DNA of 62,970 bases, filler included. It is 4 parts of 4 records of this genome, joined end to end, with 100 filler letters (N's around TTAATTAATTAA, not from the genome) between each part and the next. Parts side by side here need not be neighbours in the genome. Positions count along the whole stretch, not along the records: positions 35,452 to 52,903 come from DRR723986_1319; 3 more parts are not named here. One strand, 5' to 3'. Positions 3,810 through 61,921 of this stretch are shown piece after piece. Position 1 is the first letter of the stretch, and each line of letters begins with the position of its first letter. A model generated the notes under the pieces. That model had not been told where the DNA came from. It saw nothing but the letters and a program-made list of their open reading frames with translations, and ran no database searches. Both the position numbers and the translations under genes were made by a program.

Positions 3810-3864
3810 TTTTCATCCTGTCGTTAGTTCGCTGCACGCGTCTATGGTTATGCGCTGGTCCGGC

Positions 3865-43661: not shown

Positions 43662-44303
43662 CATGCGAATTGGCCAGTTTGCGATGCAACGGGGCTTCAT
43701 CGCCTAGATGGAACGCCCGTGTAGAAGCCTCTCCCCGGCAGACGCTCGACCTCTCGCACGGGGAACTGGTAACGAAGGGCGTCACGTGTTAGGGCGCTTG
43801 AGTTCACCAGCCGAGGCAACTTGGTGGTTTTCAACCGCCGTGCGTTGTTCAGCCACAATCTTGCGTCCCAGCGCCGAAGGTGTTTCTTCGATGAGTCTCA
43901 CAACGGCGTCGCTTGCGGTCAGTCGGTTCTTTCGGACTTGCCTGACTGATGCAATTGCGATTGTCGTGCGGCCGCGTTGCGTGCCAGACAGGAGTTCGTC
44001 CGGAAAGTGCGTCACAGGTCCTGTTCGGTTGTATAGAATGGTGTCAAACCAATGGGCCCAAGAAAGCCACTTCCACGAGATCAGATTCTTTCGCCCGGAT
44101 TTGCTCCACCGGAACTTTGGCTGGGTTCGTCGGTTTCCAACCATGTCGACGATGCGTTGCTTTCGTTCCCACCTGCACACCAATCGACCAATTTGACTCG
44201 ATCGAACGCCGCACCCTGTTCTCGGTGCGAAGCGATCTGAGAATTTCGACTTTCCCGGACAGTTGCCACTTCGCAAGTGGTCTGATGGAGATTGACCTAC
44301 CGC

Positions 44304-45476
44304 ATGGATACTATCGACTTTGAGCCAAGGACGCGGCTGGTCTTCGGCGAAGGCACGACGAGCCGACTCGGACAACTTTCAAGCGAGCTTGGTGCGAAGC
44401 GGGCTCTGGTTGTCAGCGATGCGGGCGTCGTTGCTGCTGGGCATTTCCAACGCGGCGTCGACGCGCTAACCGCCGAAGGGATCGAGGTTCAGGCGTTTCA
44501 TGGTGTTCATGAGAACCCGTCGACTGACGACGTGGCCGCTGGCGTTGCAGTTGCGGAAGCGTTCAAGCCAGACCTACTGATCGGCCTTGGCGGGGGCAGT
44601 TCGATGGATTGCGCCAAGGGCATTAACTTCATCTATTCCTGCGGTGGAAAGATGGAGGACTACTGGGGCGTCGGCAAAGCGACCAGTGACATGTTGCCGA
44701 TGATTGCCGTCCCAACAACAGCGGGCACCGGAAGCGAGGCCCAGTCGTTCGCCTTAATCAGCCAAGCGGAATCACACGTCAAGATGGCGTGTGGCGATCC
44801 GCGCGCGGCCTGCAAAATTGCAATCCTCGATCCTCAGCTAACGCTGACACAACCGCCTCGCGTGACCGCACTGACTGGAATCGATGCTATTTCGCATGCA
44901 CTCGAGTCTTTTGTCTCGTCGAAACGCAACACCCTGAGCGCTTGCTATTCGCGGCAAGCGTGGCAATTACTGAGTGAAGGATTTCCGCGAGTTGTTGCGA
45001 GCCCCGGAGACATTGAAACGCGAGGCCAGACGCAACTCGGCGCCTACTTCGCTGGTCTGGCAATCGAGACCAGCATGTTAGGCGCGGCGCACGCTCTCGC
45101 AAATCCGCTTACGGCGAAGTACGGCGTCACGCATGGCCAAGCTGTTGGGATGATGCTGCCGTCGGTGATACGATTCAATGGGCTGGCGGTCGAACGGTGG
45201 TACGACGAACTTTGGCGTGATGTGGCCCACACTCAGATTGGTCAAGAGGTTGCTTCGGAGAGTTCGAGCACTTCGTTGAGTAAGTTTACCGCCAGGCTGG
45301 TCGAGCTTGCGGGGCTTGAAACACAACTTTCGCGAGTCGGCGTTGAAGCGGATTCGATCGAAGAACTAGCGACAGCGGCAACAAAACAATGGACGGGCAA
45401 CTTCAACCCCCGTAAACTGACGCAGGACGACTTTCGCATCATGTACGAAGAGGCTTTCCATAAGGAAGCGGTTTAA
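44304..45476 (+). CDS. Iron-containing (type III) alcohol dehydrogenase
   Basis: GLGGGSSMDCAK, VPTTAGTGSE, DAISHALE and AHALANPL...THG. Confidence 0.9.
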   Translation: MDTIDFEPRTRLVFGEGTTSRLGQLSSELGAKRALVVSDAGVVAAGHFQRGVDALTAEGIEVQAFHGVHENPSTDDVAAGVAVAEAFKPDLLIGLGGGSSMDCAKGINFIYSCGGKMEDYWGVGKATSDMLPMIAVPTTAGTGSEAQSFALISQAESHVKMACGDPRAACKIAILDPQLTLTQPPRVTALTGIDAISHALESFVSSKRNTLSACYSRQAWQLLSEGFPRVVASPGDIETRGQTQLGAYFAGLAIETSMLGAAHALANPLTAKYGVTHGQAVGMMLPSVIRFNGLAVERWYDELWRDVAHTQIGQEVASESSSTSLSKFTARLVELAGLETQLSRVGVEADSIEELATAATKQWTGNFNPRKLTQDDFRIMYEEAFHKEAV

Positions 45477-45532
45477 ATGCCGGTGAGCAATTGAGCTGTT
45501 TCACGAGAACGATGTTTTCAGAGACCCCATCC

Positions 45533-46669
45533 ATGAAGCTACATTCCAGCGCACTGAAAGTGCTAAGATTCGCCATAGTGCTGTCCTGCACCCTCGCGTG
45601 CGGCCCATTGTTCGCGGAAGATTGGCCTCAAGAACGCTACGATGTTCAAGGCAGCGGGGCGACGCCGACGGAATTGCCCAAGGACCTGGAACTGCTTTGG
45701 GAGAAGCGTCTCGAGGGCACTGGTTTCGACCGCGGGCCAATTATCGCCGACGGAATGATTTACTGCGGCGATGCCGATGGTGTGCTTTGGGCGCTTTCGT
45801 TGAAAGACGGCGAGGTTGCTTGGAAGCATGAAGAAGAGACCATGTACAACTCCAGCCCATCCTACCAAGATGGCGTTTTGTACGCGGGAGACATCGACGG
45901 TCAACTACGAGCCTTCGACGCCAAGACGGGGGATGTGAAATGGAAGTTCGATGCTGAGATGGAGATCGACGCCGGACCGAATTTCTTCGAAGATTCTCTC
46001 CTACTCACGAGCCAGAATGGCACGCTGTATTCATTGTCCAAGAAGGGCGAGCTGAATTGGAAGTACAGCATCGAGCAGCCGCTGCAGTGCGGTGCCACAC
46101 TAGCCGGCAACCGAACTTTCTTGGGCGGCTGTGACGAGCAGTTTCACACAATCGATGTGAAAAAGGGCACATTATTGGGCGAACCATCTCCTCTTGGCGC
46201 TCCGACTGGAAGTACGCCGACTGTAAGCGACAATCGCGTTTTCGTTCCAACCTATGCTGGGGCTATCTTTGCGTTCGAGCCAGGCAAAAAGGAGCCTGTG
46301 TGGACGTTTCGTGAGCCCAAATTAGCAGACAAGTTCGAGAACTCTTCTGTAGCTGTCGCAAAGGGCTTGGTCGTCGCGTGCAGCCGAACGCCAAAGCGGG
46401 TGTTTGCGTTGGAGGCCGCCACTGGAAAAGTCAAATGGGAGATGGTGCCTAGGAAACGCTCGGACGCTTCGCCTATAATTGCAGGTAACAGCGTTTTTGT
46501 TGCTGCCGCGGACGGGAGAGTGATTCGCCTAGATCTGATGACGGGCGAGCAAACGTGGATGAGCGAAGTCAAGCCAAGCTTCCTAGCCTCACCGGCCGCA
46601 GCAGACGGACGTTTGGTTGTGGCCAACGATCGCGGAACAGTTTACTGCTTCGGTGCGAAGAAGAGGTAG
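45533..46669 (+). CDS. Exported PQQ-like/BamB-like beta-propeller repeat protein
   Basis: Signal peptide, DWPQER, and repeated (A/F)(D/E)xxTGxxxW blades. Confidence 0.85.
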   Translation: MKLHSSALKVLRFAIVLSCTLACGPLFAEDWPQERYDVQGSGATPTELPKDLELLWEKRLEGTGFDRGPIIADGMIYCGDADGVLWALSLKDGEVAWKHEEETMYNSSPSYQDGVLYAGDIDGQLRAFDAKTGDVKWKFDAEMEIDAGPNFFEDSLLLTSQNGTLYSLSKKGELNWKYSIEQPLQCGATLAGNRTFLGGCDEQFHTIDVKKGTLLGEPSPLGAPTGSTPTVSDNRVFVPTYAGAIFAFEPGKKEPVWTFREPKLADKFENSSVAVAKGLVVACSRTPKRVFALEAATGKVKWEMVPRKRSDASPIIAGNSVFVAAADGRVIRLDLMTGEQTWMSEVKPSFLASPAAADGRLVVANDRGTVYCFGAKKR

Positions 46670-46799
46670 GGCTTCACTCAAACTGCATTGCTTGCCGGTA
46701 CAGCCGGAATGCACTCGGGCGCTACACGACCAAACGGTAATTATTCAAACTCAATAGCACGCTGTTGCAGCGTGACCCAATACGGGAAGTAGAATCGAA

Positions 46800-48107
46800 A
46801 TGACGGCAGAAGCGACGAAGACTGAAGTAGGCAGCTACTTCATTTCAAACTATCCGCCCTTTTCGCAGTGGCAGAGCGATAGCCTTCCCGAGGTCGAACA
46901 GGCGATGGCCAAGAAGCCTCGCGAGGTTCCGCTGGGGCTTTACTTGCACATTCCATTCTGTCGCAAACGCTGCAAGTTCTGCTACTTCAAAGTGTTCACT
47001 GGCAAGAACGCAGGTGAGATTGAACGATACGTAGAAGCCCTTTGCACAGAAATTGAGCTGGTCAGCCAGCAGCCCGCTATGGGCGATCGACCGTTCCGCT
47101 TCGTCTACTTCGGCGGCGGAACGCCTAGCTTTCTAGCTCCCAAGCAACTGACCAGTCTGGTAGATCGGCTACGGGCCAATATTAGCTGGGACAAGGCAGA
47201 AGAAGTTACCTTCGAGTGCGAGCCTGGCACGTTGAGCGAGAAGAAGGTCGCCACGCTCAAGGACTTGGGCGTCACGCGCCTGAGCCTCGGCATCGAAAAC
47301 TTCAACGACAAACTGCTTGAAGACAATGGACGTGCACACCTATCCAAAGAAGTCTTCAAGGCATGGGAGTGGATTGAGTCGGCTAATTTCCCAAACGTCA
47401 ATATTGACCTGATCGCGGGCATGGTCGGCGAGACTTGGGACAACTGGAAAGACAACATTCGCCGTACACTAGATCTTTCACCGGAGAGTGTCACGATCTA
47501 CCAGATGGAGTTGCCGTTCAATACCGTCTACTCCGAGGGCATCCTCAAGGAATCGCAAGAGTCACCGGTTGCGGATTGGCAAACGAAACGCGACTGGGTG
47601 AAATACGCCTTTGAGGAGTTCGCGGCGGCGGGATACGCGCAGAGTTCGGCGTACACCATGATCAAAGACCCGAACAAGATCTCGTTCAGCTATCGAGATA
47701 ACCTTTGGAAGGGATCGGACCTGCTGGCAACCGGTATCGCTTCCTTCGGACACATTTCGGGTGTTCACTACCAGAACCGGCCCGAGTGGCATCAGTACAT
47801 CGGCGCCCTTGACGAGGGCAAGCTTCCTCTGGGACGAGCCTTCACCCCGACACAGAAACAGGCGATGATTCGCGAGCTGATACTGCTGCTCAAGCGGGGA
47901 TACGTCGAACCGTCCTACTTCCAGGACAAATTCGGTGTTGATATTCGCACCGAGTATGCGGAAGTGTGGCAACAGTACAAATCAGATGGTTTCGTCGGCA
48001 GCGATGAGGGAGATCGAATCGAGCTGACGATGGACGGCTTGCTGCGGGTCGACGGGCTCTTGCCTGCCTTCTTTGAACCTGAGCACCAGGGAGTTCGGTA
48101 CACTTAA
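46800..48107 (+). CDS. HemN-like (coproporphyrinogen III oxidase family) radical SAM enzyme, atypical
   Basis: LYLHIPFCRKRCKFC, YFGGGTPS, RLSLGI and NIDLIAG. Confidence 0.9.
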   Translation: MTAEATKTEVGSYFISNYPPFSQWQSDSLPEVEQAMAKKPREVPLGLYLHIPFCRKRCKFCYFKVFTGKNAGEIERYVEALCTEIELVSQQPAMGDRPFRFVYFGGGTPSFLAPKQLTSLVDRLRANISWDKAEEVTFECEPGTLSEKKVATLKDLGVTRLSLGIENFNDKLLEDNGRAHLSKEVFKAWEWIESANFPNVNIDLIAGMVGETWDNWKDNIRRTLDLSPESVTIYQMELPFNTVYSEGILKESQESPVADWQTKRDWVKYAFEEFAAAGYAQSSAYTMIKDPNKISFSYRDNLWKGSDLLATGIASFGHISGVHYQNRPEWHQYIGALDEGKLPLGRAFTPTQKQAMIRELILLLKRGYVEPSYFQDKFGVDIRTEYAEVWQQYKSDGFVGSDEGDRIELTMDGLLRVDGLLPAFFEPEHQGVRYT

Positions 48108-48562
48108 TGTCCGATTCACTCGTGTTCATGATGGGCGAGTACGAAGCCCATTTTCCAAAGGAACTCTTGTACGCAAAGAACCACATGTGGGCTGCGCAAA
48201 GTGGCGATGCACTGCGATTCGGTTTGAGCGCCTACGCCGTTCGCCTGCTGCAAGACGTCTACTTCCTTGACATTACGATTGAGCCGGGCATGACACTTAC
48301 CGCTCGGACCGAGATTGGATCAATCGAAAGCAAGAAGGCGGAGAGTAGTCTTTACAGTCCGTGCGCCGGAAAGGTGACAGCTATCAACGAGTCCTTGCTG
48401 GAAGATCCGACAACGATCAATACAGACAAGTATGGAGATGGCTGGCTGTTCGAGCTTGACGGTTCGTCCGATGGATTATTCGATGCAGCCGGATACATGG
48501 TCAATTTGGAAACCGCTTGGGAAGTCGCACAACGTATGATCAAGGGGCAGGCAAATGCTTAA
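48107..48562 (+). CDS. Glycine cleavage H-like lipoyl-carrier protein
   Basis: Y.KNHMW, IESKKAESSLYSPCAGKV..IN, IN.DKYGDGWLF. TAATG overlap with the radical SAM stop. Confidence 0.85.
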   Translation: MSDSLVFMMGEYEAHFPKELLYAKNHMWAAQSGDALRFGLSAYAVRLLQDVYFLDITIEPGMTLTARTEIGSIESKKAESSLYSPCAGKVTAINESLLEDPTTINTDKYGDGWLFELDGSSDGLFDAAGYMVNLETAWEVAQRMIKGQANA

Positions 48563-49661
48563 GCAACGCACGCTGACCGTTGTCGTCTCTGCGGGTCAGA
48601 GTCGCAATCCGAAGAAACGCGAGCTCGAGGCCGCTGTTGCTGAGCTGGCCGCGGGGATCGAAGGCGTCCGAGTCGTTCGTGTGCCGCACCTGTACGACTT
48701 GCCACCGCGCGGTGAAACGTATCAGAAGCTTAGCGAAATTGACGACGATCTGGTTGTCGTTGGTTGGCTGTACGATCGCGCCACTCATTGGATCCTCGAC
48801 CGCAACGGTGTGACCGGACAGCCGGGCGAAGTTGAATTGCTCGCACCGGACAAACTGACTGACGATGATGACGAAGAAGACGTCACAGACGAGGAAGAAC
48901 TTCAACGCGTCACCGATTCTCAGCCTCGTCCAGATCGCGAAATTTATTGCATTGAGTTTCGTGCGAGCGAAAAGCCCGAGGAATTCGGCGCAGAGATTCG
49001 TCGCATCGTGTCACTCTCCCAGATGGATTCCGCGGAACCGAGCGGTACACCTCTGACGTTGGAAACCCTGACACGCTTCGAACAGCCGACGAATGATACC
49101 TACGTCGATAGTCCTACCCTTTCCAGTGCATTGCCACCTCCGGCAGACGGCAGTGACGATGCAGTTATCGCCGGAGTGCAGGCGGTAACGACGATCGAAG
49201 AAGCGTCTGGGCGACGTTGGTATCCAGTGATCGACTTCAGTCGTTGCACGAACTGCATGGAATGCATCGACTTCTGTCTGTTTGGCGTCTACGGGGTCGA
49301 CACGGTTGAGACCATCGTCGTCGAACAGCCGGACAATTGCCGAAAGGGCTGTCCGGCGTGCTCTCGCGTCTGCCCTCAAAACGCAATCATCTTTCCTCAA
49401 CACAAGACGCCAGCCATCGCCGGCGCTCCTGTTGAAGCGGGTGGTCTGAAGATCGACCTTTCGAAGCTTTTCGGTGCACCAGAGTCCGACGAGGATGCCG
49501 CTGAGGTCGCTGCTCGCGAGCGTGACGAACAATTGATCCTTGCAGGTCGCAAGCCGCTAGCTGGACAATCGGAGCTTGAACAACGAATTGCGGCCAGCAA
49601 GAAGTCCAAGCCAGACGAGCTTGACAGCTTGATCGATGAACTCGATGCGCTCGACCTGTAG
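48555..49661 (+). CDS. 2x[4Fe-4S] ferredoxin-domain protein with extra N-terminal domain
   Basis: CTNCMECIDFC and CRKGCPACSRVCP. 8-nt overlap with the upstream gene. Confidence 0.85.
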   Translation: MLKQRTLTVVVSAGQSRNPKKRELEAAVAELAAGIEGVRVVRVPHLYDLPPRGETYQKLSEIDDDLVVVGWLYDRATHWILDRNGVTGQPGEVELLAPDKLTDDDDEEDVTDEEELQRVTDSQPRPDREIYCIEFRASEKPEEFGAEIRRIVSLSQMDSAEPSGTPLTLETLTRFEQPTNDTYVDSPTLSSALPPPADGSDDAVIAGVQAVTTIEEASGRRWYPVIDFSRCTNCMECIDFCLFGVYGVDTVETIVVEQPDNCRKGCPACSRVCPQNAIIFPQHKTPAIAGAPVEAGGLKIDLSKLFGAPESDEDAAEVAARERDEQLILAGRKPLAGQSELEQRIAASKKSKPDELDSLIDELDALDL

Positions 49662-49728
49662 AAGACGTGACTTCGCAGGTTCCGCGTCTGGTCGACAACA
49701 TCCGAGTAGAAGTTGCGGAGAAGTTGCA

Positions 49729-52700
49729 ATGCGAAGATTTCCAGCGGCATTGCTAGTTGCACTACTCTTCTGTTCGGTGCAAGTTGCCTGGGCTCAAGAC
49801 GATCATTCTGAAGCCGACTCAGGGAGAACGATCGCCGCCGGACTCGAATCGCTATCGGTTGACGGATGGTCAAAGTCGGCTGTCGCTTGGGAGCCCGACG
49901 TGGTTGACCCCATCGCGGCTACATTTGATGCGCGCGGCCGAATGTGGGTTGTCGAGATGCGAGACTACCCATTTCTCCCGGCCGACGATACGCCCGCGGG
50001 GCAAATCGTTGTGTTTGACCAGCCATCTGACAGTGACACTGGCCCTGTGTATCAGCGGAGGACGGTGTTCGCTTCTGAAATCAACATGCCGACAGGGATA
50101 GCGATTGCCGGAGACGGTGTTCTTTGCACGCATGCTGGCAAGCTGACGTACTTTGAAGACACTGACGGTGACTTAATAGCCGACGTATCCGAAGATTGGA
50201 TCGAGGGTTTTTCGGAGGGCAACGAACAACTGCGCGCAAACCATCCTACCCTTGGTTTGGATGGCTGGTGGTACATCGCAAGCGGCCTTCGCGGTGGGAA
50301 GGTTGCTGTTGTGAAGCCCGCAACTACGGACGGGCCAGCAATTGCCCCCGGGACGAAGCAGCAGAAGCCGGAACTGCTTGACGCGATTGACATGGGAACG
50401 CTCGACCTGCGATTCCACGCGCCAAGCGGTCGGCTTGAACTGGTAACGGGTGCGAGCCAGTTCGGCTTGTCGTTTGACGCCTTGGGTAATCGCTTTTCGT
50501 GCAGCAACAGAAATCCGGCGATTCAATTCGTTGTCGAGCAAGACGAGTCGTTGGACAACTTATTCGATGGAATCTGGCCAACAACGGTTGATCGGTTACC
50601 GAGTGGCTCCAATTCTCAGGTCTTTCCGCGTGTTCAAGCTTGGACGACGTCGAATCTACATTCGGGGCAGTACACGGCTGCCTGTGGGTTGCATTTGCGA
50701 TCACATGGACTAGGGGATGACTATTCGTCGAATGCGTTTGTCTGTGAGCCTACGGGTTCGTTGGTATCGCGGTCGATCATTTCGTGGGACGGTCGCTCAG
50801 GCAGATTGGGGCTGGAGGGCCGCTCGCTGGCAAGCGAACAAACGGGCGACTGGCTGACAAGCGATGACGAATGGTTCCGCCCCGTGAACGTGGCCAATGC
50901 TCCTGGAGGCGGAGTGATCGTGGTCGACATGCACAGAGCGGTGATCGAGCATCCGCATTGGGTGCCCGAAGAACTCCGCGATCGGCCCGACCAGCGCGAT
51001 GGCTCCTCTCATGGAAGGATTTATTGCTTTGAACCGACAAATCAGTCTAACTTCTTGCGAAGCCGCCTCAGAGAACTTGCCGCTCAACCGATGCATGCAC
51101 TTGACTCAGCGGAACTTGCAGACTGCCTTTGTAGACAAGACGAGTGGAGCAGGGTGAACGCAGCAAAGATTTTCGTTCACCGCTGGTCGCTCGATCCGCC
51201 AAAACCCGAGGGCTTCACTGATCTACAACGTCTGGCTCTTGATAGCGACGCTCACTTGCAAGGCCGTCTGATTGCGATTCGGCTGCTTGGCCACTGGGCG
51301 CCTCCCTCGATTGCGAAGAGCATTTACGATTCGCTGAATGCCGAGCCCGCGCTCCGAGCGGTACTCTTACGTAACCTGAGCGGCAAACACGCTTGGGTGA
51401 GGCAACTGCTGCTGAGCAAAGGGGGCGAATCATCTTGGGCAGAAACTCAAGCCACCCGCGAGGAAACGTTGCTCGCCATCCTGCGAACTAACCGGACGCT
51501 GGATACTGATGCTGTAGGGGCGGTAGACCTAGATGACCAAGAGTGCAAGGCGCTCGTCGAGTACTATCGTTCCTCGCCTGAGAGTCTTGCGTCGGCAGAG
51601 CTGGAGTTGTTTGCTCTTGGTGGTTTGCTGCGTAACAGGCCAGCCGAGCTACTTGGGTTGATGTTAGATGGAGCTGAGTCGCGTATCGGATCCGGCGCTG
51701 AAATGTCTCGTTATTCGTTGGCAGCTCGCTCGCTGACTCAAGCCTGCCGGCGAAGGAATGATTTGCAATCACTAGCTCCGGAGCTTGTCCGGCGTTTTGA
51801 AAACGACCTTGCCGAATTTAGGAGAGCAATCGAGCTGGGGCAAGACGCCAACTTGGCTATACAATTTACGACATCGATGTTGCAGGCTATGGTCGACGCC
51901 AGAGTTCAGCTCCCAGGGCGAGTCTTCGAACAACTTGATGCGCTCGCAAGGTCGAAAGCATTGACTCCCGCCAATGCCCGCCGGGTTGTTGATCTTCTGA
52001 GAATTTCCGAATCCGAAGCGTCTCGGGACGTGATACGCGGATTCCTTGGTCAGGATGGGCGATTGGGCGCGGCGGCTTGGCGTGCCTATTCTGAACATGT
52101 CAGTGATGCCGAATTTGTTGCTACCGCCAGCGAGCGGTTGCCCTCTGCTGATGCCGCCCTCGGGGATACACTCGCTGAGCTGCTTGTCGCTAACCCGGCT
52201 CGCGAGAAACGTACCGCTCAGATGCTAATTGAGGGCAACATGGATGGACGTCTTCTGGGCGGTGCACGTGTCTTCGGGCTGTCTCGTCGATCTTCGGGAG
52301 ATAGCAAGAAGCGGCTTCGCGAAATTCTCGAAGGCTTGCGGAATCCGGACCGCGAGAAGCTTATCAAACGCTACGCAGCTTCCCTCGACAAGTCGTCTTC
52401 TGCGGCAAAAGGCAAGAAGCACTTCGGAAAGCACTGTGCAAATTGCCATCGCGTCGGCGACATTGGCGTCTCGATTGGCCCCGAGATCTCCGACACTCGC
52501 ACGAAGAAACCGATTGAACTGTTGACTGCAATTCTGAATCCGAACCTAGCAGTTGATAACCGCTATTTTGAGACGCATATCCTGGTTGAAAACGGCGAAG
52601 CGCTGGCCGGGCTGATCGAGGCAGAGAGTGGGGATTCGATCGTTATAAGGACAAAGGAAAACGATCGAGTCGTTGTACGTCGTGAGGAGATCGTGGTGAA

Positions 52701-52839
52701 ACGCACCGGGCGCGTGTCCCTCATGCCTGAAGGCTTTGAGAACAACATTTCACCAGGCGAGATGTCCGAGTTGATTTCGTTCTTGAAGAATTGGCGATAC
52801 TTGGACGGTCGCATTCCGATCAGACCGAACCGCAACTGA
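49729..52839 (+). CDS. PVC-type membrane-bound dehydrogenase-domain / CxxCH heme-binding protein
   Basis: Signal peptide, FDARGRMWVVEMRDYP, QFGLSFD..GNRF, WFRPV and C-terminal CANCH..IGP...SLMPEGFE. Confidence 0.88.
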   Translation: MRRFPAALLVALLFCSVQVAWAQDDHSEADSGRTIAAGLESLSVDGWSKSAVAWEPDVVDPIAATFDARGRMWVVEMRDYPFLPADDTPAGQIVVFDQPSDSDTGPVYQRRTVFASEINMPTGIAIAGDGVLCTHAGKLTYFEDTDGDLIADVSEDWIEGFSEGNEQLRANHPTLGLDGWWYIASGLRGGKVAVVKPATTDGPAIAPGTKQQKPELLDAIDMGTLDLRFHAPSGRLELVTGASQFGLSFDALGNRFSCSNRNPAIQFVVEQDESLDNLFDGIWPTTVDRLPSGSNSQVFPRVQAWTTSNLHSGQYTAACGLHLRSHGLGDDYSSNAFVCEPTGSLVSRSIISWDGRSGRLGLEGRSLASEQTGDWLTSDDEWFRPVNVANAPGGGVIVVDMHRAVIEHPHWVPEELRDRPDQRDGSSHGRIYCFEPTNQSNFLRSRLRELAAQPMHALDSAELADCLCRQDEWSRVNAAKIFVHRWSLDPPKPEGFTDLQRLALDSDAHLQGRLIAIRLLGHWAPPSIAKSIYDSLNAEPALRAVLLRNLSGKHAWVRQLLLSKGGESSWAETQATREETLLAILRTNRTLDTDAVGAVDLDDQECKALVEYYRSSPESLASAELELFALGGLLRNRPAELLGLMLDGAESRIGSGAEMSRYSLAARSLTQACRRRNDLQSLAPELVRRFENDLAEFRRAIELGQDANLAIQFTTSMLQAMVDARVQLPGRVFEQLDALARSKALTPANARRVVDLLRISESEASRDVIRGFLGQDGRLGAAAWRAYSEHVSDAEFVATASERLPSADAALGDTLAELLVANPAREKRTAQMLIEGNMDGRLLGGARVFGLSRRSSGDSKKRLREILEGLRNPDREKLIKRYAASLDKSSSAAKGKKHFGKHCANCHRVGDIGVSIGPEISDTRTKKPIELLTAILNPNLAVDNRYFETHILVENGEALAGLIEAESGDSIVIRTKENDRVVVRREEIVVKRTGRVSLMPEGFENNISPGEMSELISFLKNWRYLDGRIPIRPNRN

Positions 52840-53003: not shown

Positions 53004-53326
53004 TGAACCCGGAATTTGCCTCGCTCAACCTTGGGCAATGCGTGCTGCTGACCGCCTATGAATGGCGCCGCGCGACAGAAGAGATCGTGGCCGAGGTCAT
53101 GGAAATGGCGCGCACCGACTTTGCCACCGGGCTGGAGGTTGAAAAGCTGGGTGACCATTTCGAGGAACGTATGGAAGCGGCGGGATTTTTCTTCCCCGAG
53201 GCCAAGGCCGAAAGCATGCGCCTGAACCTGCGCAACATGTGGGCCCGACTGCCGCTGACCCGCGCCGATGTGCAGATCCTGCACGGGGTGCTGCGCCAGA
53301 TGGTCCGCTGGAAGGAACGCGGATAG
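53004..53326 (+). CDS. trmJ: TrmJ/LasT-family SPOUT RNA methyltransferase, C-terminal part (5' truncated)
   Basis: The frame upstream of the listed ORF reads NPEFASLNLGQCVLLTAYEW (SPOUT SLNL motif); the C-terminus is DVQILHGVLRQ. Confidence 0.8.
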
Positions 53327-53405
53327 GCGCGGCGCATTGCCGTGGCGCTTGATCCCCCCGGTGGGCAGGGCTAGGTCTGTGGCGACGACGAAAGGAGCCC
53401 GAGGC

Positions 53406-54542
53406 ATGAGCGGACAGCGCAGTATCTTCGAAGAGGTCACCGAAACCCGGAAACCGGCCGCCACGCCGGGCGCTTTGACAGCGGGCCGGGGCAGGGGGCG
53501 CGGTTTCGCGCGCGGATGGCTTTTGCTGCTGTTTGCGATGGTCGTGGCAATGATCGTCGTGGGCGGGTTGACCCGGCTGACGGATTCAGGCCTGTCGATT
53601 ACCGAATGGGCGCCGATCTCTGGCGCGATGCCGCCGCTGAATGAGGCCGATTGGCAATCGGAATTCGCCGCCTATCAGCAGACCGATGAATACCGGCTGC
53701 AAAATGCGGGGATGAGCCTTGAGCAGTTCAAGAACATCTATTGGTGGGAATGGGGTCATCGGCAGCTAGGCCGGACCATCGGCCTAGTCTGGGCGCTTGG
53801 CCTCGGGATCATGCTGGCCACGCGGCGGATGCCCACGGGCTGGACCGGTCGGTTCCTGTTGCTGGGTGCGCTCGGCGGCGCGCAGGGGGCGATTGGCTGG
53901 TGGATGGTGCATTCAGGGTTGCAGGAGGGGATGCTGGATGTGGCCTCTTACCGCTTGGCAACACATCTGGGTCTGGCCTTCCTGATCCTTTCGCTGATCG
54001 CCTGGTATGTGTTCCGCCTGTCCCGCGACGAAGCCGAACTGATGCAGGCCCGCCGCAACGCGGATCGCAAGATCAAGGGCATGGTGACGGGCTTGCTGCA
54101 TCTGTCCTTCATCCAGATCCTTCTGGGGGCGCTGGTCGCAGGCATCGACGCGGGCCGCATGTTTCCCGATTGGCCGCTGATGTCCGGGGGTTTCTTCCCA
54201 CCCGACATGTGGCAGATCGAACCCCTGTGGCGGAATTTCTTTGAAAACGCGGGCACCGTCCAGTTCATCCACCGGATCGTGGGCTATGTGCTGGTGGCGC
54301 TGGCCATCGGTATCCTCATGGCGGCCCGCAAATCCGCCAATCGCAGCGTCAAGGGCGCGGCGCAGGTGGCGGCGGTGATGATCTTCGTTCAGGCCACGCT
54401 TGGGATCGTCACGGTCATGCAGTCCTCGCCTCTCGCATTGGCCATCATTCACCAGTTGGGCGCAGTCGCAACCATCGTTCTTGTTTTGCGCGCCCGCTTC
54501 ACCGCGATGCATCCACGCGCGCAATCCGTAAGAGGATCCTGA
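53406..54542 (+). CDS. ctaA: Heme A synthase (COX15/CtaA type 2)
   Basis: VGGLTRLTDSGLSITEW, WEWGHR, GWWMV.SG, YRLATHL, QFIHR and HQ. Confidence 0.93.
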   Translation: MSGQRSIFEEVTETRKPAATPGALTAGRGRGRGFARGWLLLLFAMVVAMIVVGGLTRLTDSGLSITEWAPISGAMPPLNEADWQSEFAAYQQTDEYRLQNAGMSLEQFKNIYWWEWGHRQLGRTIGLVWALGLGIMLATRRMPTGWTGRFLLLGALGGAQGAIGWWMVHSGLQEGMLDVASYRLATHLGLAFLILSLIAWYVFRLSRDEAELMQARRNADRKIKGMVTGLLHLSFIQILLGALVAGIDAGRMFPDWPLMSGGFFPPDMWQIEPLWRNFFENAGTVQFIHRIVGYVLVALAIGILMAARKSANRSVKGAAQVAAVMIFVQATLGIVTVMQSSPLALAIIHQLGAVATIVLVLRARFTAMHPRAQSVRGS

Positions 54543-54543
54543 C

Positions 54544-56016
54544 ATGTCGGCCTATGACAATCTGATTGCCTTCCAGAAAGACACGCAGGCGCTGGCGCAG
54601 GTCATGGAGCGGCTTGGCTGGGATCAGGAAACCGTGATGCCGCGCGGGGCGGCGGATCAGCGGTCCGAGGAAATGGCGGCGATGGAGGCCGTTCTGCACG
54701 CCCGGCGCACTGATCCGCGCGTGGGCGATTGGCTGGCCAAGGCAGAACCCGCAGACGACGTGGCCCGCGCCAACCTGCGCCTGATCCGCCGGGAATATGA
54801 CCGCGCTGTCAAAGTACCCGCCGATCTGGCAAAGGCACTGGCCAAGGCCACCTCTCGCGCCCAGGGCATCTGGGCCGAGGCGCGCGCTGGCGAAGACGTC
54901 GCGGCCTTCCTGCCGACCTTGGCCGAGATCCTGGCGCTGCGGCGCGAGGAAGCTGCGGCCATTGCAGGTGACGCCGACCCCTATGATGCGCTGTTGCAGG
55001 ATTATGAACCGGGGATCAGCGGCGCAGAACTGCAAGCGCTGTTTTCCCGGATGCGCCCGCGTCTGGTTGATCTGCGCGGGCGGGTGCTGTCGTCAAGCTA
55101 CGATCCCGAACCGTTGCACGGCACCTTCCCGGAAGCCACGCAACTGGCGCTGTCTGCCGAATTGGCGCAGGCCTTCGGCTATGACTTTGCCCATGGCCGC
55201 ATCGACAAGGCAGTGCATCCGTTCAGCTCCGGCTCTGGCCATGATGTGCGGATCACCACGCGGGTGGATGAGGAGGAGCCGTTCGGCTGTCTCTATTCCA
55301 CCATCCACGAGGTCGGCCACGCCTGCTATGAGCTGCATATCGACGACGCCTATATGCTCAGCGTTCTGGGGCAGGGCGTGTCCATGGGTGTGCATGAAAG
55401 CCAAAGCCGGTCCTATGAAAACCAGATGGGCCGCAGCCGCGCCTTTACCGGCTGGCTATTTAGCAAGATGACCGAGGCGTTCGGGCCCCTGAACGTCACC
55501 GATGCCGATGCGTTCCACGCCGCCGTCAACCGGGTGCAGTCGGGCTTTATCCGCACAGAAGCCGACGAAGTGCATTACAACCTGCATATCCTGCTGCGGT
55601 TTGATCTGGAACGCGCACTGATCGGTGGCGATCTTCAGGTGAGTGATCTGGAAGCCGCGTGGAATGACCGGTTCCAGTCCGATTTCGGGGTCGCGGTCGA
55701 CAAGCCTTCAAACGGGATGCTTCAGGACGTGCATTGGTCTGTGGGGCTGTTTGGCTATTTCCCGACCTATACGCTTGGCAATGTCTATGCGGGCTGCCTG
55801 TTCAAGGCGCTGCGCGAGGATCTGCCGGATGTGGATGCGCAAATGGCGAAGGGCGATCTGAGCGGCGCAACCGGTTGGATGGCTGCAAACCTGCAAACCC
55901 ACGGCGGACTATACGAGCCACGAGAAGTCGTGGAACTTGCGTCCCGTGCTCCGGTCAGTGAAGAGCCGTTGCTCGATTACTTAGACGCCAAGTTTGGCGC
56001 GATTTACGGGGTGTGA
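54544..56016 (+). CDS. Carboxypeptidase M32 (Taq-type)
   Basis: LGWDQET.MP, HPF, HEVGH, HESQS, IRTEADE and QDVHWS.G.FGYFPTY. Confidence 0.93.
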   Translation: MSAYDNLIAFQKDTQALAQVMERLGWDQETVMPRGAADQRSEEMAAMEAVLHARRTDPRVGDWLAKAEPADDVARANLRLIRREYDRAVKVPADLAKALAKATSRAQGIWAEARAGEDVAAFLPTLAEILALRREEAAAIAGDADPYDALLQDYEPGISGAELQALFSRMRPRLVDLRGRVLSSSYDPEPLHGTFPEATQLALSAELAQAFGYDFAHGRIDKAVHPFSSGSGHDVRITTRVDEEEPFGCLYSTIHEVGHACYELHIDDAYMLSVLGQGVSMGVHESQSRSYENQMGRSRAFTGWLFSKMTEAFGPLNVTDADAFHAAVNRVQSGFIRTEADEVHYNLHILLRFDLERALIGGDLQVSDLEAAWNDRFQSDFGVAVDKPSNGMLQDVHWSVGLFGYFPTYTLGNVYAGCLFKALREDLPDVDAQMAKGDLSGATGWMAANLQTHGGLYEPREVVELASRAPVSEEPLLDYLDAKFGAIYGV

Positions 56017-56017
56017 C

Positions 56018-57208
56018 ATGGGGGTGCGGCCAGAACAGGCCGCACGTGGCGCGGCTGTCTGGATGCTGGCGGTAGGCCAGACGCTCAGCTACGCCTGTCT
56101 CTACTACATTTTCGCAGCCCTGATCCTGAGCTGGGAGGCCGACCTGGGCTGGGACCGCACGGTACTGGCCACGGGGCCTTTCCTGTCCATCGTGATTGCC
56201 GCCACACTGGCCCCGTTCGCGGGGCGGCTGGTGGATCTTGGCAAAGGGCCCGAGGCAATGGTGGCGGGCGCTGCGACCGGGGCAGGGGCGCTGTCCTTGC
56301 TGGCGCTGAGCCAGACCCCGACGGCCTATCTGGTTTCCTGGGCCCTGATCGGATTGGCGCAGTCGGTGGCGCTGTACGAGACATGCTTTGCCTTCCTGAT
56401 CCGTCGCCTCGGGCCCCACGCCCGGGCTGCGATTGTGCGGGTCACGCTGGTGGCTGGCTTTGCCTCGACCCTGGCTTTTCCGGCGGGCGCGACGTTGAGC
56501 GCTGCAATCGGCTGGCGTGGCGCGGTCTGGGTTGCGGCTGCGGTGATGGCGTTCGTGCTGGTGCCGCTCTTTGTAATTGCGGGCCGGATGCTGCGCCGGG
56601 TAGAGGGCGCGCTGGATACAAGAGAGGCCGACAAGGGTGCTTTGGGCCGGGCCTTGCGTTCGGCCAGCTTCTGGATTTTGGCGATCGTGTTTTCTCTGGT
56701 CGCGCTCAATCACTGGATGCTGGTGAACTACGCCGTGCCCATCTTCGTGGCGCAGGGGGCGAGCCAGCCTTTGGCGGTTTTCGCGGCCTCGACCGTCGGA
56801 CCGGCGCAGGTGGCGGGGCGGCTGGTGCTGATGCGGTTCGAGGCTCGTATCGGGACGACAACCGCAACCCGGATTACCTTCCTGACCATGGTCGCGGGCA
56901 CGCTGGCGCTGTTCCTTGCGGGCGTCCAGCCCTGGATGATCTTTGCCTTCACGCTCATTCAAGGCGGCGCGATCGGGGTCATGACCATTCTGCGCCCGGT
57001 GCTGATATCCGAGGTCATGGGACCGGCGGGCTACGGGGCGATTGCGGGCACCATCCAGATCCCGGCGCTGCTGGCTGGCGCGCTGGCCCCGGTTCTTGGC
57101 GCGGTCATGCTGGACGGGTTCGGGGTGGCGGGGCTGCTTGGCTTGTCGCTGCTGGTGCTTGCGGCCAGTGTTGCAATGCTGGCCGTGCTGCTGCGTCGGA
57201 TCGGTTGA
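56018..57208 (+). CDS. MFS transporter
   Basis: About 12 hydrophobic segments, GRLVD.G motif A, TLVAGFAST and GPAQVAGR. Confidence 0.88.
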   Translation: MGVRPEQAARGAAVWMLAVGQTLSYACLYYIFAALILSWEADLGWDRTVLATGPFLSIVIAATLAPFAGRLVDLGKGPEAMVAGAATGAGALSLLALSQTPTAYLVSWALIGLAQSVALYETCFAFLIRRLGPHARAAIVRVTLVAGFASTLAFPAGATLSAAIGWRGAVWVAAAVMAFVLVPLFVIAGRMLRRVEGALDTREADKGALGRALRSASFWILAIVFSLVALNHWMLVNYAVPIFVAQGASQPLAVFAASTVGPAQVAGRLVLMRFEARIGTTTATRITFLTMVAGTLALFLAGVQPWMIFAFTLIQGGAIGVMTILRPVLISEVMGPAGYGAIAGTIQIPALLAGALAPVLGAVMLDGFGVAGLLGLSLLVLAASVAMLAVLLRRIG

Positions 57209-57209
57209 T

Positions 57210-58019
57210 CTAACCCGGCTGCGTCCAGTCCGGCACCCGCTTTTCAATAAAGGCGTCAATCCCTTCGGCGGTGTCGTCATCCAGCATGTTTTCCACCATC
57301 ACCGCGCCGGTATAGTCATAGGCCTGGCTCAGGTTCATCTGGATCTGGTCGTAAAACGCCCGTTTGCCGATGCGAACCGCGCTGCCAAGCTTGTCGGCCA
57401 CGGTCTGCGCCATGTCCATAACCTCATCCTCCAGCCGATCTGCGTGGACGGATCGGTTGATCAGCCCGAGCGCCTCGGCCCGGTCGGCAAGGATGAAACG
57501 GCCCGTGGTCAACATCTCCATCGCCTGCTTGCGCGGGATATTGCGGGACAGGGCCACCATGGGCGTGGAACAAAACAGCCCGATATTGACGCCATTCACC
57601 CCGAAGCGCGTGTCATCGGCGGCAATCGCCATGTCGCAGGACGCAACCAGTTGGCAACCCGCCGCCGTGGCGATGCCGTGGACCTGGGCAATCACCGGTT
57701 GCGGCAGGCGCGGGATCATCTGCATGATCTCGCCGCAGCGGTTGAAGAGATCGCGCAGGGCGACGGCGCCCTTGTCTGGCGCCTGCCTCTTGGCGCGCAT
57801 TTCCTTCAGGTCATGGCCCGCGCAAAATGCCTTGCCAACCCCGCGCAGGATAACGACGCGCTGCGTTTCCGATCCCATCAGATCGGTGAATTCCTCCTTC
57901 AGCCGCGCCAGCATCCCATCCGACAGCGCATTCAGCGCGCCGGGCATGTTCAGCGTCAGCCGGGTGATGGGGCCGAGATCCTCGCGGATAAGAATATCCT
58001 GTGACGTAGCGTCCGACAT
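57210..58019 (-). CDS. Enoyl-CoA hydratase (ECHDC3-like)
   Basis: AFCAGHDLKEM, VHGIATAAGCQLVASCD and GLFCSTPMVALSRN. Confidence 0.9.
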   Translation of the reverse strand: MSDATSQDILIREDLGPITRLTLNMPGALNALSDGMLARLKEEFTDLMGSETQRVVILRGVGKAFCAGHDLKEMRAKRQAPDKGAVALRDLFNRCGEIMQMIPRLPQPVIAQVHGIATAAGCQLVASCDMAIAADDTRFGVNGVNIGLFCSTPMVALSRNIPRKQAMEMLTTGRFILADRAEALGLINRSVHADRLEDEVMDMAQTVADKLGSAVRIGKRAFYDQIQMNLSQAYDYTGAVMVENMLDDDTAEGIDAFIEKRVPDWTQPG

Positions 58020-58084
58020 CTGGCGCTCCCTTGCCAATTGCGTTCAAGACGCTGAATGCTAGGCCAAAAGAGGGAGGAGGGGCA

Positions 58085-59088: not shown

Positions 59089-59220
59089 ATCCCACCATGT
59101 GCGACAATGGTCGATTGTGAAAACCCCTTAAAGCGCGATTTCCCGCCGCTTGCGCGGTGTTGCTTTTGACCCCCTTGGCAGCGCGGCCTATAAGGCGAGT
59201 GCGCCACAGGAGTCGCGGGC

Positions 59221-61833: not shown

Positions 61834-61843
61834 CGGTTGAGTG

Positions 61844-61921
61844 GGGCGCGCGGCGCGTCGACGCGCCGCAACACCGGGCGTCGACGCCCGGTACGCTTTG
61901 CGCGCGCAAAGCGGCGCGCCC
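61844..61921. repeat. Three adjacent perfect 20-bp palindromes enclosed by a 6-bp stem
   Basis: GCGGCGCGTCGACGCGCCGC (61850-61869), ACCGGGCGTCGACGCCCGGT (61873-61892) and CGCTTTGCGCGCGCAAAGCG (61894-61913), closed by GGGCGC/GCGCCC. Confidence 0.9.

Follow-up and report, generated by a model that had tools for sequence, protein, structure and literature searches.

The five-gene cluster of the window, the whole 62,970-nucleotide stretch of DNA analysed here, is best explained as a lineage-specific junction of two gene modules that belong to a larger network in a subset of Planctomycetota, and the product of this network would be a prenylated aromatic compound; we put the probability of this reading at roughly 40%. 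The network is directly visible in its gene content, in gene adjacencies, in co-occurrence across genomes and in a gene fusion, and no publication describing it was found. The members of module A are a LuxE-like adenylating enzyme (c7), an ALDH-like protein (c5), the iron-containing alcohol dehydrogenase (Fe-ADH), the beta-propeller, the HemN-like radical SAM enzyme (rSAM) and two further proteins, k11 with a chorismate-lyase fold and the FAD enzyme k7. Module B comprises the GcvH-like protein (H-like), a CobW-like GTPase, the Fe-S protein Fer, a SPASM-type radical SAM enzyme (rSAM2), a protein resembling squalene-hopene cyclase (cyclase-like) and a DUF116-polyprenyl diphosphate synthase.

Table 1. 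Genes of the cluster and other features assigned in the window
Feature	Position	Strand	Evidence
Dihydrolipoyl dehydrogenase (window 5' end)	1126-2562		545.9 bits, cut-off 408.8
2-Oxoglutarate dehydrogenase E1 (window 5' end)	3865-6744		
Fe-ADH (iron-containing alcohol dehydrogenase)	44304-45476	+	Pfam and NCBIfam matches
BamB-like/PQQ-repeat beta-propeller, exported (predicted)	45533-46669	+	PF13360 match, hydrophobic N-terminus
HemN-like (class C type) radical SAM enzyme (rSAM)	46800-48107	+	PF04055 match
GcvH-like (H-like) lipoyl-carrier paralogue	48107-48562	+	PF01597 match
Fe-S protein Fer	48555-49661	+	Fer4-type Pfam matches
Heme A synthase	53268-54542		NF045570, 591.2 bits, cut-off 550

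The gene layout given in the original prediction was confirmed: five co-oriented ORFs were found on the plus strand from 44304 to 49661, the stop codon TAA of rSAM overlaps the ATG of H-like in the TAATG at 48105-48109, and the ATG of Fer at 48555 lies within the end of the H-like gene, giving an 8-nt overlap (48555-48562). The gap between Fe-ADH and the propeller is about 56 nt when measured to the propeller ATG at 45533 (alternative starts lie at 45491 and 45512), and that between the propeller and rSAM is about 130 nt. All members scored under the curated NCBIfam cut-off of their namesake families; a deviation had been noted for several of them. The claimed lack of heme, gcvP, gcvT, lipA, lipB and pqq genes stood only in part: gcvP, gcvT, lipA, lipB, pqq and heme b synthesis genes were not seen among 53 window ORFs (13 ORFs plus 40 from a crude ORF call at E<=1e-40, so that weak or small genes may escape the scan), but a heme A synthase gene and a gene for a CxxCH heme-binding protein lie downstream of the cluster. 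Genes of two lipoyl enzymes, dihydrolipoyl dehydrogenase and 2-oxoglutarate dehydrogenase E1, are located at the 5' end of the window. The suggested link to the upstream ACP/desaturase genes and the downstream PVC-type dehydrogenase was not supported: these recur together in only one of 80 loci (L001), with an ACP match on its own also in L050. Between 41500 and 50500, promoter-like sites showed no excess (3, against a shuffle mean of 3.2), and the 12 terminator-like sites, against 9.1 in shuffles, were not counted as one.

Judged by its sequence, rSAM is a member of a distinct, highly conserved subfamily of HemN-like (class C type) enzymes. It matched PF04055 with 79.8 bits and remained under the NCBIfam cut-offs for HutW (188.9 vs 400), HemN (183.9 vs 324.95), HemW (171 vs 205.4) and STM4012 (180.2). 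The family profile aligned with positions 31-424 of E. coli HemN/CgdH (1olt; 204.9 bits), nearly the full length, and the two have in common the radical SAM core, the CxxxCxxC and GGGTP motifs and the C-terminal HemN-type domain; C54, C58 and C61 are invariant across the family, and Y48 and H50 are conserved along with GGGTP. It differs from HemN/CgdH in the invariant F63 at the site of the fourth Cys of HemN and in an invariant N-terminal motif of its own (G11, Y13, F14, N17-P20, W24). Relatives were 73-95% identical among the matches listed, and orthologues with 48-83% identity (E<=4e-136) were present in 39 of the 201 genomes sampled for phyletic profiles.

The full HemN architecture, the conserved motifs and very high conservation of rSAM, together with the heme A synthase and heme-binding protein genes downstream, would fit a role in heme metabolism, in which rSAM serves as an oxygen-independent coproporphyrinogen/coproheme decarboxylase or as a second heme chaperone, with Fer/H-like as electron acceptor/donor. 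We regard this role as decidedly improbable: rSAM is under the HemN, HemZ and HemW cut-offs and has an invariant Phe in place of the fourth Cys, no heme genes are among its conserved neighbours, and ctaA and the PVC genes recur in L001 only. As had been anticipated, rSAM is not HemW, since a true HemW scoring over the cut-off is encoded elsewhere in 5/5 genomes of relatives, and by the curated cut-off it is not HemN, since no match in these 5/5 genomes reached it. Furthermore, rSAM was found in genomes with ChdC (4/5) as well as with HemF (1/5), which indicates that its presence is independent of the heme route.

The H-like protein (PF01597, 77.6 bits) belongs to the GCV_H fold family and carries the ExxKA lipoyl-lysine motif, as do glycine cleavage H and stand-alone H-like carriers, such as the GcvH of lipoate relay and the LbpA of sHdr systems; K77, the lipoyl-lysine position, and E74/A78 are invariant in 26/26 aligned H-like and canonical sequences. 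In contrast to glycine cleavage H, it scored under the GcvH cut-off (TIGR00527, 85.6 vs 115.85), carries conserved N- and C-terminal extensions of its own, and is never found beside gcvT/gcvP; its neighbours are the genes for the Fe-S protein, the CobW-like GTPase and radical SAM enzymes. The canonical gcvH was found over the cut-off elsewhere in 4/5 relatives' genomes, and within gcvT-H-P operons in both relatives inspected, which bears out the assumption that H-like is not the glycine-cleavage subunit. In addition, a second GcvH-type match was present in 30 of the 39 rSAM-bearing genomes among the matches listed. LipA was over the cut-off in 5/5 relatives, so the H-like lysine could be lipoylated by housekeeping enzymes. 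For the reduction of a radical SAM cluster a lipoyl couple is poorly suited, which counts against the pathway proposed below.

H-like is a GcvH paralogue that stands alone and keeps the lysine; its Fe-S and radical SAM gene neighbours, and a geranylgeranyl-reductase-like flavoenzyme in module A, resemble the gene company of sHdr-LbpA clusters, which likewise includes Fe-S proteins, radical SAM enzymes and such a flavoenzyme. That H-like and Fer form an LbpA-type unit, which binds lipoate and handles sulfur or thiols with no tie to radical SAM reduction, is nevertheless highly improbable: Hdr-like, lipoate-ligase and sulfur-transferase genes were not seen in the loci annotated, and the radical SAM enzymes are HemN-like (rSAM) and SPASM-type (rSAM2), neither being of the LipS type, for which NCBIfam gave no match.

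Fer has an N-terminal domain with a flavodoxin-like fold (residues ~1-160); an acidic linker leads to a 2x[4Fe-4S] ferredoxin domain (~220-285), after which come a conserved C-terminal region and an acidic tail. Fer4-type Pfam matches at residues 222-278 were near or under the cut-off, and eight Cys (231, 234, 237, 241, 262, 266, 269 and 273) were invariant in 23/23 sequences. The AF2 model was mostly confident for residues 1-160 (block means mostly 77-97), apart from an acidic insert near 107-117 (<50), and poor for the Fe-S part. The best fold matches of the N-terminal domain (Z <=8.0) were generic CheY/flavodoxin-like folds, and a Foldseek search gave no match at E<=1e-3. Fer was matched in 53 genomes of the survey, including 22 of the 162 without rSAM; the N-terminal domain was covered in no more than 8 genomes and, by split hits, in 2 others, and the remaining matches cover the Fe-S and C-terminal part alone. 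Since Fer-type genes adjoin a radical SAM gene and in one case are fused with it, radical SAM enzymes may plausibly have an Fe-S partner dedicated to them, as the original prediction had proposed for rSAM.

The neighbourhood of rSAM was compared in 80 close loci (rSAM orthologues of 66-95% identity) and in 35 more distant loci. In the close loci, the start of H-like is at most 450 nt from the rSAM stop codon in 58 of the 76 with enough flank, mostly with zero gap, Fer follows in 34/60, and the propeller and ADH lie upstream of rSAM in 49/73 and 25/65, respectively. All five genes in order were seen in 16/86 related loci and collinear rSAM-H-Fer in 35/94, and overlapping stop/start codons occur in the window and in its relatives. 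Thus, the genes do recur by rSAM, in support of the predicted co-conservation, but a closed five-gene system was not borne out: distant rSAM genes keep ADH (26/34) and the propeller (17/36) upstream, whereas H-like follows in just 1/35 loci and Fer in 1/32. The usual neighbour of H-like/Fer is instead a SPASM-type radical SAM gene, which is missing from the window, and 8 of the 39 rSAM-bearing genomes gave no Fer match and, among the matches listed, no more than one GcvH match.

These counts bear on the closed carrier pathway, in which rSAM would take electrons from Fer to modify a group that H-like carries on its lysine or lipoyl arm. The translational coupling of rSAM and H-like, their proximity in close loci, the invariant K77 and the second GcvH-type match would all be expected, and a LuxE-like enzyme of the size of an 'acyl-protein synthetase', which adjoins H-like in two genomes (G109 and G047), could load an acyl group. 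We consider this pathway unlikely given the separation of H-like from distant rSAM genes and the genomes that have rSAM without a Fer match; moreover, at least 15 genomes have H-like together with Fer at a long distance from rSAM or on a different contig, and one genome (G093) has H-like, Fer and rSAM2, yet rSAM and c7 were not found in it.

The junction reading is supported by the other members of module A. The 39 of 201 genomes with orthologues of c7 (49-81% identity, E<=1e-98) are precisely those with rSAM, although co-occurrence is confounded by descent because these 39 genomes may be one clade. All 26 genomes with k11 are among these 39, and 18 of them have the start of k11 no more than about 120 nt from rSAM. 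Neighbours at the distant loci included the ALDH-like (18/33) and LuxE-like (18/33) genes, k11 (18/35) and k7 (23/34). The c7 protein (376 aa) showed a weak match to the ANL adenylating domain, and c5 (485 aa) belongs to the ALDH superfamily. A LuxC/LuxE fatty-acid reductase followed by an alcohol dehydrogenase is a known arrangement, and c5/c7 have the sizes and superfamilies of LuxC/LuxE and lie upstream of Fe-ADH; however, they match neither the LuxC nor the LuxE Pfam model, and both genes are outside the window. The AF2 model of k11 (pLDDT 93.9) was most similar to the DUF98 protein 2nwi (E 1.4e-8, TM 0.66-0.80) and also matched E. coli chorismate lyase (1g81, E 5e-5). Most of its 48 Foldseek matches were ligand-binding UTRA domains, which have the chorismate-lyase fold too, and k11 may therefore have a function other than that of a lyase. 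The scores of k7 for the halogenase CmlS (181 bits), the protein-quinone maturase QhpG (142) and geranylgeranyl reductase (134) were all under the cut-off.

In module B, H-like adjoins a Fer-type gene in at least 24 of the 53 genomes in which Fer was matched, a lower bound counted from the best 150 H-like matches. Orthologues of rSAM2 were found in 39/201 genomes, all 39 with a Fer match and 19 with a Fer-type gene within 400 nt of rSAM2, and a 772-aa fusion (L130:4583-6901) joins a Fer4 dicluster domain to a radical SAM domain. The DUF116-polyprenyl synthase gene, whose DUF116 domain is Cys-rich, and/or the cyclase-like gene was present in 8 of the 12 module B loci inspected. Module A and B genes exchange neighbours across lineages: k11 is directly downstream of the DUF116-polyprenyl synthase gene in 5/5 Pirellulales-type genomes, the cyclase-like gene precedes this pair in all three loci inspected (with k7 next in one), c7 is divergent from H-like in G109 and G047, and H-Fer lies 1.7 kb upstream of rSAM, divergently, in G205. 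The fold of k11 and its position after a polyprenyl synthase recall the prenylquinone logic of a UbiC/DUF98 chorismate lyase with a polyprenyl diphosphate synthase. This setting differs in that the synthase is fused to DUF116 and preceded by the cyclase-like gene, and no UbiA-type aromatic prenyltransferase, decarboxylase or O-methyltransferase was found in the loci inspected; k11, the DUF116-polyprenyl synthase and the cyclase-like gene are encoded outside the window.

Thus, we proposed that the network may produce a quinone-like or meroterpenoid-like lipid or cofactor, in which k11 would turn chorismate into an aromatic head and the polyprenyl chain would come from the DUF116-polyprenyl synthase. 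The HemN-like rSAM would perform class C chemistry, most likely C-methylation at an sp2 carbon of the aromatic head, and c7, c5 and Fe-ADH would convert a carboxylate to an aldehyde and then to an alcohol. Fer could be an electron partner dedicated to the radical SAM cluster in the window, the lipoylated H-like protein together with Fer might act as a redox relay or swinging-arm carrier, and the propeller might have an extracytoplasmic action on, or with, the product. To our knowledge, described planctomycetes contain menaquinone-6 only. According to a review (PMC10114718, section 8), the class C HemN-like enzymes MqnK/MenK C-methylate menaquinone, the methyl group being added to the prenylated aromatic ring at an sp2 carbon. 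We likened rSAM to these enzymes by their description, as its conserved neighbours are a chorismate-lyase-fold protein and, in the wider network, a polyprenyl synthase; a difference is that no menaquinone genes were recognised in the cluster.

The first two genes of the cluster also accompany rSAM beyond close relatives. Fe-ADH matched PF00465 (166.9 bits) and PF25137 (116.9 bits), and its best NCBIfam match was ErcA (289.9 vs a cut-off of 550). Orthologues of 57-68% identity were present in 5/5 relatives' genomes, where paralogues did not exceed 32%, and the window Fe-ADH is the orthologue of the ADH that adjoins the HemN-like rSAM across the phylum. The propeller matched PF13360 (148.7 bits) and scored 180.3 against the BamB model TIGR03300 (cut-off 285.2); its N-terminus, MKLHSSALKVLRFAIVLSCTLACGPLFAEDW, is hydrophobic and signal-peptide-like, and hydrophobic N-termini were also found in its orthologues. 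Each genome had 2 to 13 propeller-type matches, none of which reached the BamB cut-off, and the cluster propeller was the best BamB-like match in G002 and G003. This would suit an explanation without any common function, in which clade-specific housekeeping genes are chance neighbours and the propeller is a BamB-type outer-membrane assembly factor. The low share of loci with all five genes in order points the same way, as do the complete Pirellulales-type genomes, in which most members are scattered megabases apart. We find such an explanation quite improbable, because the same genes regroup in varied orders and orientations in distant genomes, the overlapping codons recur in relatives, the profiles of rSAM and c7 are identical, and a Fer-rSAM2 fusion exists.

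The five genes of the cluster encode an iron-containing alcohol dehydrogenase (ADH), a BamB-like propeller with PQQ repeats that is exported, a HemN-like radical SAM enzyme (rSAM), a GcvH-like protein (H-like) and an Fe-S protein (Fer). The genes lie on one strand, with 130 nt between the propeller and rSAM genes, a TAATG at 48105-48109 in which the rSAM stop overlaps the H-like start, and an 8-nt overlap of the H-like gene with Fer at 48555-48562. The co-orientation and both overlaps are present in the sequence as the original prediction described, and so is the deviation of the members from their namesake families, each of the five falling below the curated NCBIfam cut-off. We read these genes as a putative biosynthetic cluster of the radical SAM kind that has its own Fe-S partner, in which the unusual element would be a lipoyl H-type protein.

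Coordinates of the features discussed (window positions unless a locus is named)
Feature	Position	Strand	Evidence
Five-gene cluster (ADH, propeller, rSAM, H-like, Fer)	44304-49661	+	ORFs, Pfam and NCBIfam domains
Heme A synthase	53268-54542	+	591.2 bits (cut-off 550) against an NCBIfam model named for alphaproteobacteria
Dihydrolipoyl dehydrogenase and 2-oxoglutarate dehydrogenase E1	1126-6744	-	545.9 bits; 1388.7 bits
642-aa protein resembling KedN5-family cobalamin-dependent radical SAM C-methyltransferases	16050-17978	+	280.4 bits, cut-off 700
PVC-type heme-binding protein, long ORF	49636-52839	+	ORF call
Natural fusion of Fer-type and rSAM2-type proteins, 772 aa	L130 (relative's locus):4583-6901	-	Fer4 dicluster 201-249, radical SAM 426-557

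On its sequence, we assigned rSAM to the HemN-like branch (class C type) of the radical SAM superfamily. It matched PF04055 with 79.8 bits (cut-off 29.5), the cysteines C54, C58 and C61 of its CxxxCxxC motif were invariant, and the family profile aligned almost end to end with E. coli HemN (1olt), over positions 31-424 and with 204.9 bits; PF06969 scored 16.7 in the window protein (cut-off 24) and was in the precomputed annotation of many listed relatives. HemN itself (TIGR00538) was rejected at 183.9 bits against an equivalog cut-off of 324.95, HemW (TIGR00539) at 171 against 205.4, and ChuW/HutW (TIGR04107) at 188.9 against 400. Whole-genome statements here come from relatives. In five of these that were searched, the rSAM orthologues scored 140-176 bits against the HemN model. 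None of the five genomes held a match reaching the HemN cut-off, and all five encoded a separate HemW of 236-299 bits away from the cluster. The heme route used ChdC in four relatives and HemF in one, and the cluster rSAM occurred in all five; thus, rSAM represents a separate HemN-like subfamily whose presence is independent of the heme route. The HemN motif CxxxCxxCxC includes a fourth cysteine, and the alignment showed C-Y-F-C-G-C in HemN (1olt) but C-K-F-C-Y-F in the rSAM family, where the phenylalanine in place of the fourth cysteine (F63) was invariant in 27/27 sequences. An invariant N-terminal motif likewise set the subfamily apart from HemN. The best 120 of 8000 scored proteins were 73-95% identical to rSAM, and those with a name, from Aureliella, Pirellulaceae and other Planctomycetota, were called 'coproporphyrinogen-III oxidase family protein'. 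Annotation as coproporphyrinogen oxidase is a routine error for HemN-like proteins. Four genomes with the main orthologue, G071, G133, G159 and G079 (L119, L120), also held HemN-like paralogues of a second tier, with 38-42% identity to the window rSAM; in locus L120 this paralogue adjoins a gene resembling the FAD enzyme k7.

The H-like product is a putative lipoyl-carrier protein of the GCV_H fold (PF01597, 77.6 bits, cut-off 22.2), with conserved N- and C-terminal extensions and a lipoyl-lysine position, K77, invariant in 26/26 aligned sequences. As GcvH (TIGR00527) it was rejected at 85.6 bits against 115.85. Canonical gcvH (131-139 bits) was found elsewhere in four of the five relatives, in which the cluster copy scored 77-82 bits, and lay within a gcvT-H-P operon in two (G001 and G004). 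Thus, the H-like protein is a paralogue distinct from the glycine-cleavage H subunit, contrary to the alternative raised alongside the original prediction.

Fer, of 368 aa, carries a bacterial-type 2x[4Fe-4S] ferredoxin domain. PF00037 scored 21.9 bits (cut-off 21.1), with other Fer4 models under their cut-offs, and the eight cysteines of the CxxCxxCxxxC and CxxxCxxCxxxCP motifs were invariant in 23/23 sequences, as were a long flanking block and the acidic C-terminal tail in the alignment. The N-terminal 160 residues formed a three-layer alpha/beta domain, mostly confident in the predicted model. Its fold matches were generic (best Z 8.0, to PurE, CheY-like and cobalamin-binding domains), flavodoxin and WrbA appeared solely among weak Foldseek rows (E 0.01-0.05), and the fold searches yielded no specific relative of Fer. 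When the Fer profile was searched against PDB sequences, it gave solely ferredoxin-domain matches (E 0.003 or weaker), and an ESM Atlas search gave only clusters that were unnamed or named 'ferredoxin', most of them planctomycete. Complex prediction of rSAM and Fer with the H-like protein as partner gave 0.48, 0.37 and 0.43, with 0.00 and 0.00 for partner-replaced controls and 0.34 for the rSAM-replaced control; the required margin of 0.20 over controls was not reached and the supplied alignments went unused, and the scores count neither way on binding.

ADH was assigned to the iron-containing alcohol dehydrogenase family by PF00465 (166.9 bits, cut-off 31.3; C-terminal domain 116.9 bits), and it reached no equivalog cut-off, the top one being ErcA (289.9/550). 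The propeller fell short of a clear BamB orthologue (TIGR03300, 180.3 bits against 285.2, many paralogues), and none of the five relatives' genomes held a match over this cut-off. In six loci (L059, L064, L069, L070, L071 and L075), a gene for a ~190-aa Uma2-family putative endonuclease (PF05685, 118 bits) was inserted in the cluster, either in the propeller-rSAM interval or before ADH, and twice in some loci.

We then compared the rSAM neighbourhoods in two sets of loci. The close set held the best 80 of 587 confirmed rSAM relatives' loci from species-representative genomes (rSAM identity 66-95%), and the distant set (48-72%) held 38 loci from a 201-genome phylum sample; two loci of a more distant paralogue tier came from the same sample. 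ORF calling gave antisense artefacts in GC-rich loci; all counts were therefore made by tblastn rather than from ORF clusters, and neighbours were counted solely in loci with enough flank. The H-like gene directly followed rSAM in 58/76 close loci but in only 1/35 distant ones, and the window's full five-gene order occurred in 16/86 loci. rSAM, H-like and Fer stood in order in 35/94 loci. Fer was near rSAM in 34/60 close and 1/32 distant loci, the propeller in 49/73 and 17/36, ADH in 25/65 and 26/34, the ALDH-like gene c5 in 15/57 and 18/33, and the LuxE-like gene c7 in 13/55 and 18/33. The 180-aa protein k11 was near rSAM in 0/75 close and 18/35 distant loci, and the FAD enzyme k7 in 1/62 and 23/34. 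The suggested link of the cluster to its ACP and CrtI-like genes upstream and its PVC heme protein downstream did not extend beyond the nearest relative (L001), the only locus with them together; an ACP match alone was also present in L050. Two chorismate-related neighbours were noted (L021, L028 and L042; L024, L036, L037 and L046). One is a dihydropteroate-synthase-type gene (PF00809, 266.7 bits), which comes after rSAM in loci lacking H-like and Fer genes. The other is a gene for a fused 3-dehydroquinase/shikimate dehydrogenase, found upstream of the propeller and divergent from it in many Rhodopirellula/Stieleria-type loci.

The usual order in distant loci was c7, c5, ADH, sometimes the propeller, rSAM, k11 and k7 (module A), followed in some by genes for a sodium:solute symporter-like protein, a 4HBT thioesterase, a PaaK/FlxY-like ligase, a GT4 glycosyltransferase and an ABC/FtsX exporter. 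The c7 product is 376 aa long with a weak ANL match, and that of c5 is 485 aa. Orthologues of c7 and rSAM occurred in exactly the same 39/201 genomes, a co-occurrence that may reflect one clade. k11 was found in at least 26/201 genomes, all 26 among these 39, and abutted rSAM in 18 of them. It had no Pfam or NCBIfam match, and its predicted model (pLDDT 93.9) matched 2nwi, a DUF98 protein (E 1.4e-8), and the chorismate lyase of E. coli (E 5e-5), along with many UTRA ligand-binding domains, which share this fold; the modelled fold is no proof of lyase activity. The top family matches of k7 were a halogenase and a protein-quinone maturase. A gene for the protein arginine kinase McsB (NF002194, 461 bits, cut-off 385) preceded the LuxE-like gene in L035, L066, L079 and L080, which are among several Planctomycetaceae-type loci.

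Fer-type matches were found in 53/201 genomes, namely 31/39 with rSAM and 22/162 others, and the Fer N-terminal domain was also matched in just eight genomes, plus two with split matches. At least 24 genomes had an H-like paralogue adjoining the Fer-type gene. In five genomes (G048, G161, G075, G100 and G178) this pair lay 0.2-3 Mb from rSAM, and the eight genomes that have rSAM but no Fer match had at most one GcvH match each. The typical order in 12 fetched loci (module B) was H-like, a CobW-like GTPase, Fer, the SPASM-type radical SAM enzyme rSAM2, a squalene-hopene-cyclase-like protein, a DUF116-polyprenyl synthase fusion and a toroid prenyltransferase-like protein, with terpene genes seen in 8/12. 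rSAM2, which is absent from the window, was the commonest neighbour of Fer. Its orthologues occurred in 39/201 genomes, every one with a Fer match, and Fer and rSAM2 were within 400 nt of each other in 19 genomes; moreover, the two types were naturally fused in one protein. Therefore, Fer belongs with radical SAM enzymes. LipA was above its cut-off in 5/5 relatives, and the reading of rSAM2 as a replacement lipoyl synthase was rejected on this basis. In-frame TGA, TAA or TAG codons were observed in 23 rSAM2 matches (e.g., G178:C1:1402322-1403512 and G047:C869:4728-5903), some of the read-through frames being very long; these probably result from the alignment running across the same-frame stop of the upstream Fer gene.

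The two modules were linked at several points. In the window's relatives, the link is the adjacency of rSAM, H-like and Fer. Elsewhere, c7 was divergent from the H-like gene (G109 and G047), the H-like/Fer pair lay 1.7 kb upstream of rSAM and divergent (G205), or Fer was within 9-37 kb of rSAM (G079, G074 and G038), and in 8/80 close loci rSAM2 lay downstream of Fer but on the other strand. k11 directly followed the DUF116-polyprenyl synthase gene in 5/5 Pirellulales-type genomes, the cyclase-like gene preceded the synthase-k11 pair in all three loci examined, and k7 came next in one. In complete Pirellulales-type genomes, c7, ADH, rSAM2, k7 and the synthase were well-conserved single-copy genes that otherwise lay scattered. 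What was observed directly is the gene content, the adjacencies, the co-occurrence and the one fusion.

From this network we infer a pathway that makes a prenylated aromatic compound and whose members would be the chorismate-lyase-fold protein k11, the polyprenyl synthase, the cyclase-like protein, the flavoenzyme and the HemN-like enzyme. The LuxE/LuxC-like pair with ADH may carry out carboxylate reduction, export functions would complete the set, and in the window Fer and the H-like protein may together serve rSAM. HemN-like enzymes that C-methylate menaquinone are known (review PMC10114718). No aromatic prenyltransferase was found among the loci examined. We tentatively proposed, with a probability of about one in five, that the lipoyl H paralogue and the 2x[4Fe-4S] protein with its putative flavodoxin fold are a dedicated radical SAM partner, acting as a redox relay or swinging-arm carrier in a clade-wide planctomycete pathway. 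Its prenylated aromatic product would be an undescribed cofactor or a membrane lipid, such as a new quinone type. The original prediction instead read the five genes as a carrier-protein-dependent radical pathway, a possible explanation that has less support than the network reading.

A full-text literature search returned nothing on this association. Nothing was found on HemN-like proteins with GcvH or on Planctomycetes radical SAM enzymes with squalene-hopene cyclase and glycine cleavage, and nothing relevant on DUF116-polyprenyl or on HemN, polyprenyl and chorismate in Planctomycetes; a lipoyl H-type protein paired with a dedicated Fe-S protein beside radical SAM genes was likewise not in the literature searched. 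According to the HemN review (PMC10114718), several clades of unknown bacterial sequences are still uncharacterised. If the network reading holds, a large planctomycete group would have 14 or more strongly conserved but uncharacterised genes that serve one undescribed product, with identities across the group of 48-95% for the HemN-like enzyme and 49-81% for the LuxE-like enzyme. The rSAM subfamily would then bring both a function and a substrate class that are new for HemN-like proteins, a dedicated radical SAM partnership would be new for a lipoyl protein, and the H-like/Fer pairing would extend the roles known for lipoyl carriers. In tractable planctomycetes, these genes are concrete targets for knockouts and for the profiling of lipids or quinones.

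As for the rest of the window, the claimed lack of gcvP, gcvT, lipA, lipB and pqq genes was borne out among the 53 ORFs scanned, and that of heme genes was contradicted by a heme A synthase above cut-off. Searches elsewhere in the window (tblastn, E<=1e-3) gave no match to c5, c7, k11, k7, rSAM2 or c11, nor to the CobW-like, cyclase-like, toroid, PaaK-like, thioesterase or polyprenyl synthase genes. Dihydrolipoyl dehydrogenase and 2-oxoglutarate dehydrogenase E1 genes lie at the 5' end; the contig therefore also encodes lipoyl-dependent enzymes. Genes for succinate dehydrogenase and citrate synthase come after these two. With the KedN5-like gene, some 29 kb upstream of the cluster, the contig carries a second radical SAM gene. 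Between the CrtI-like gene and ADH, the 640 nt at 43662-44303 contained only a 162-aa ORF, which overlaps an antisense ORF and had no family match in Pfam or NCBIfam; this stretch is probably non-coding. The start of the PVC-type heme-binding protein is most likely the ATG at 49730 rather than 49636; it lies 68 nt past the Fer stop and gives a signal-peptide-like N-terminus, MRRFPAALLVALLF. The GC content climbs from about 0.55 to 0.61-0.65 across the final 9 kb (54001-62970).
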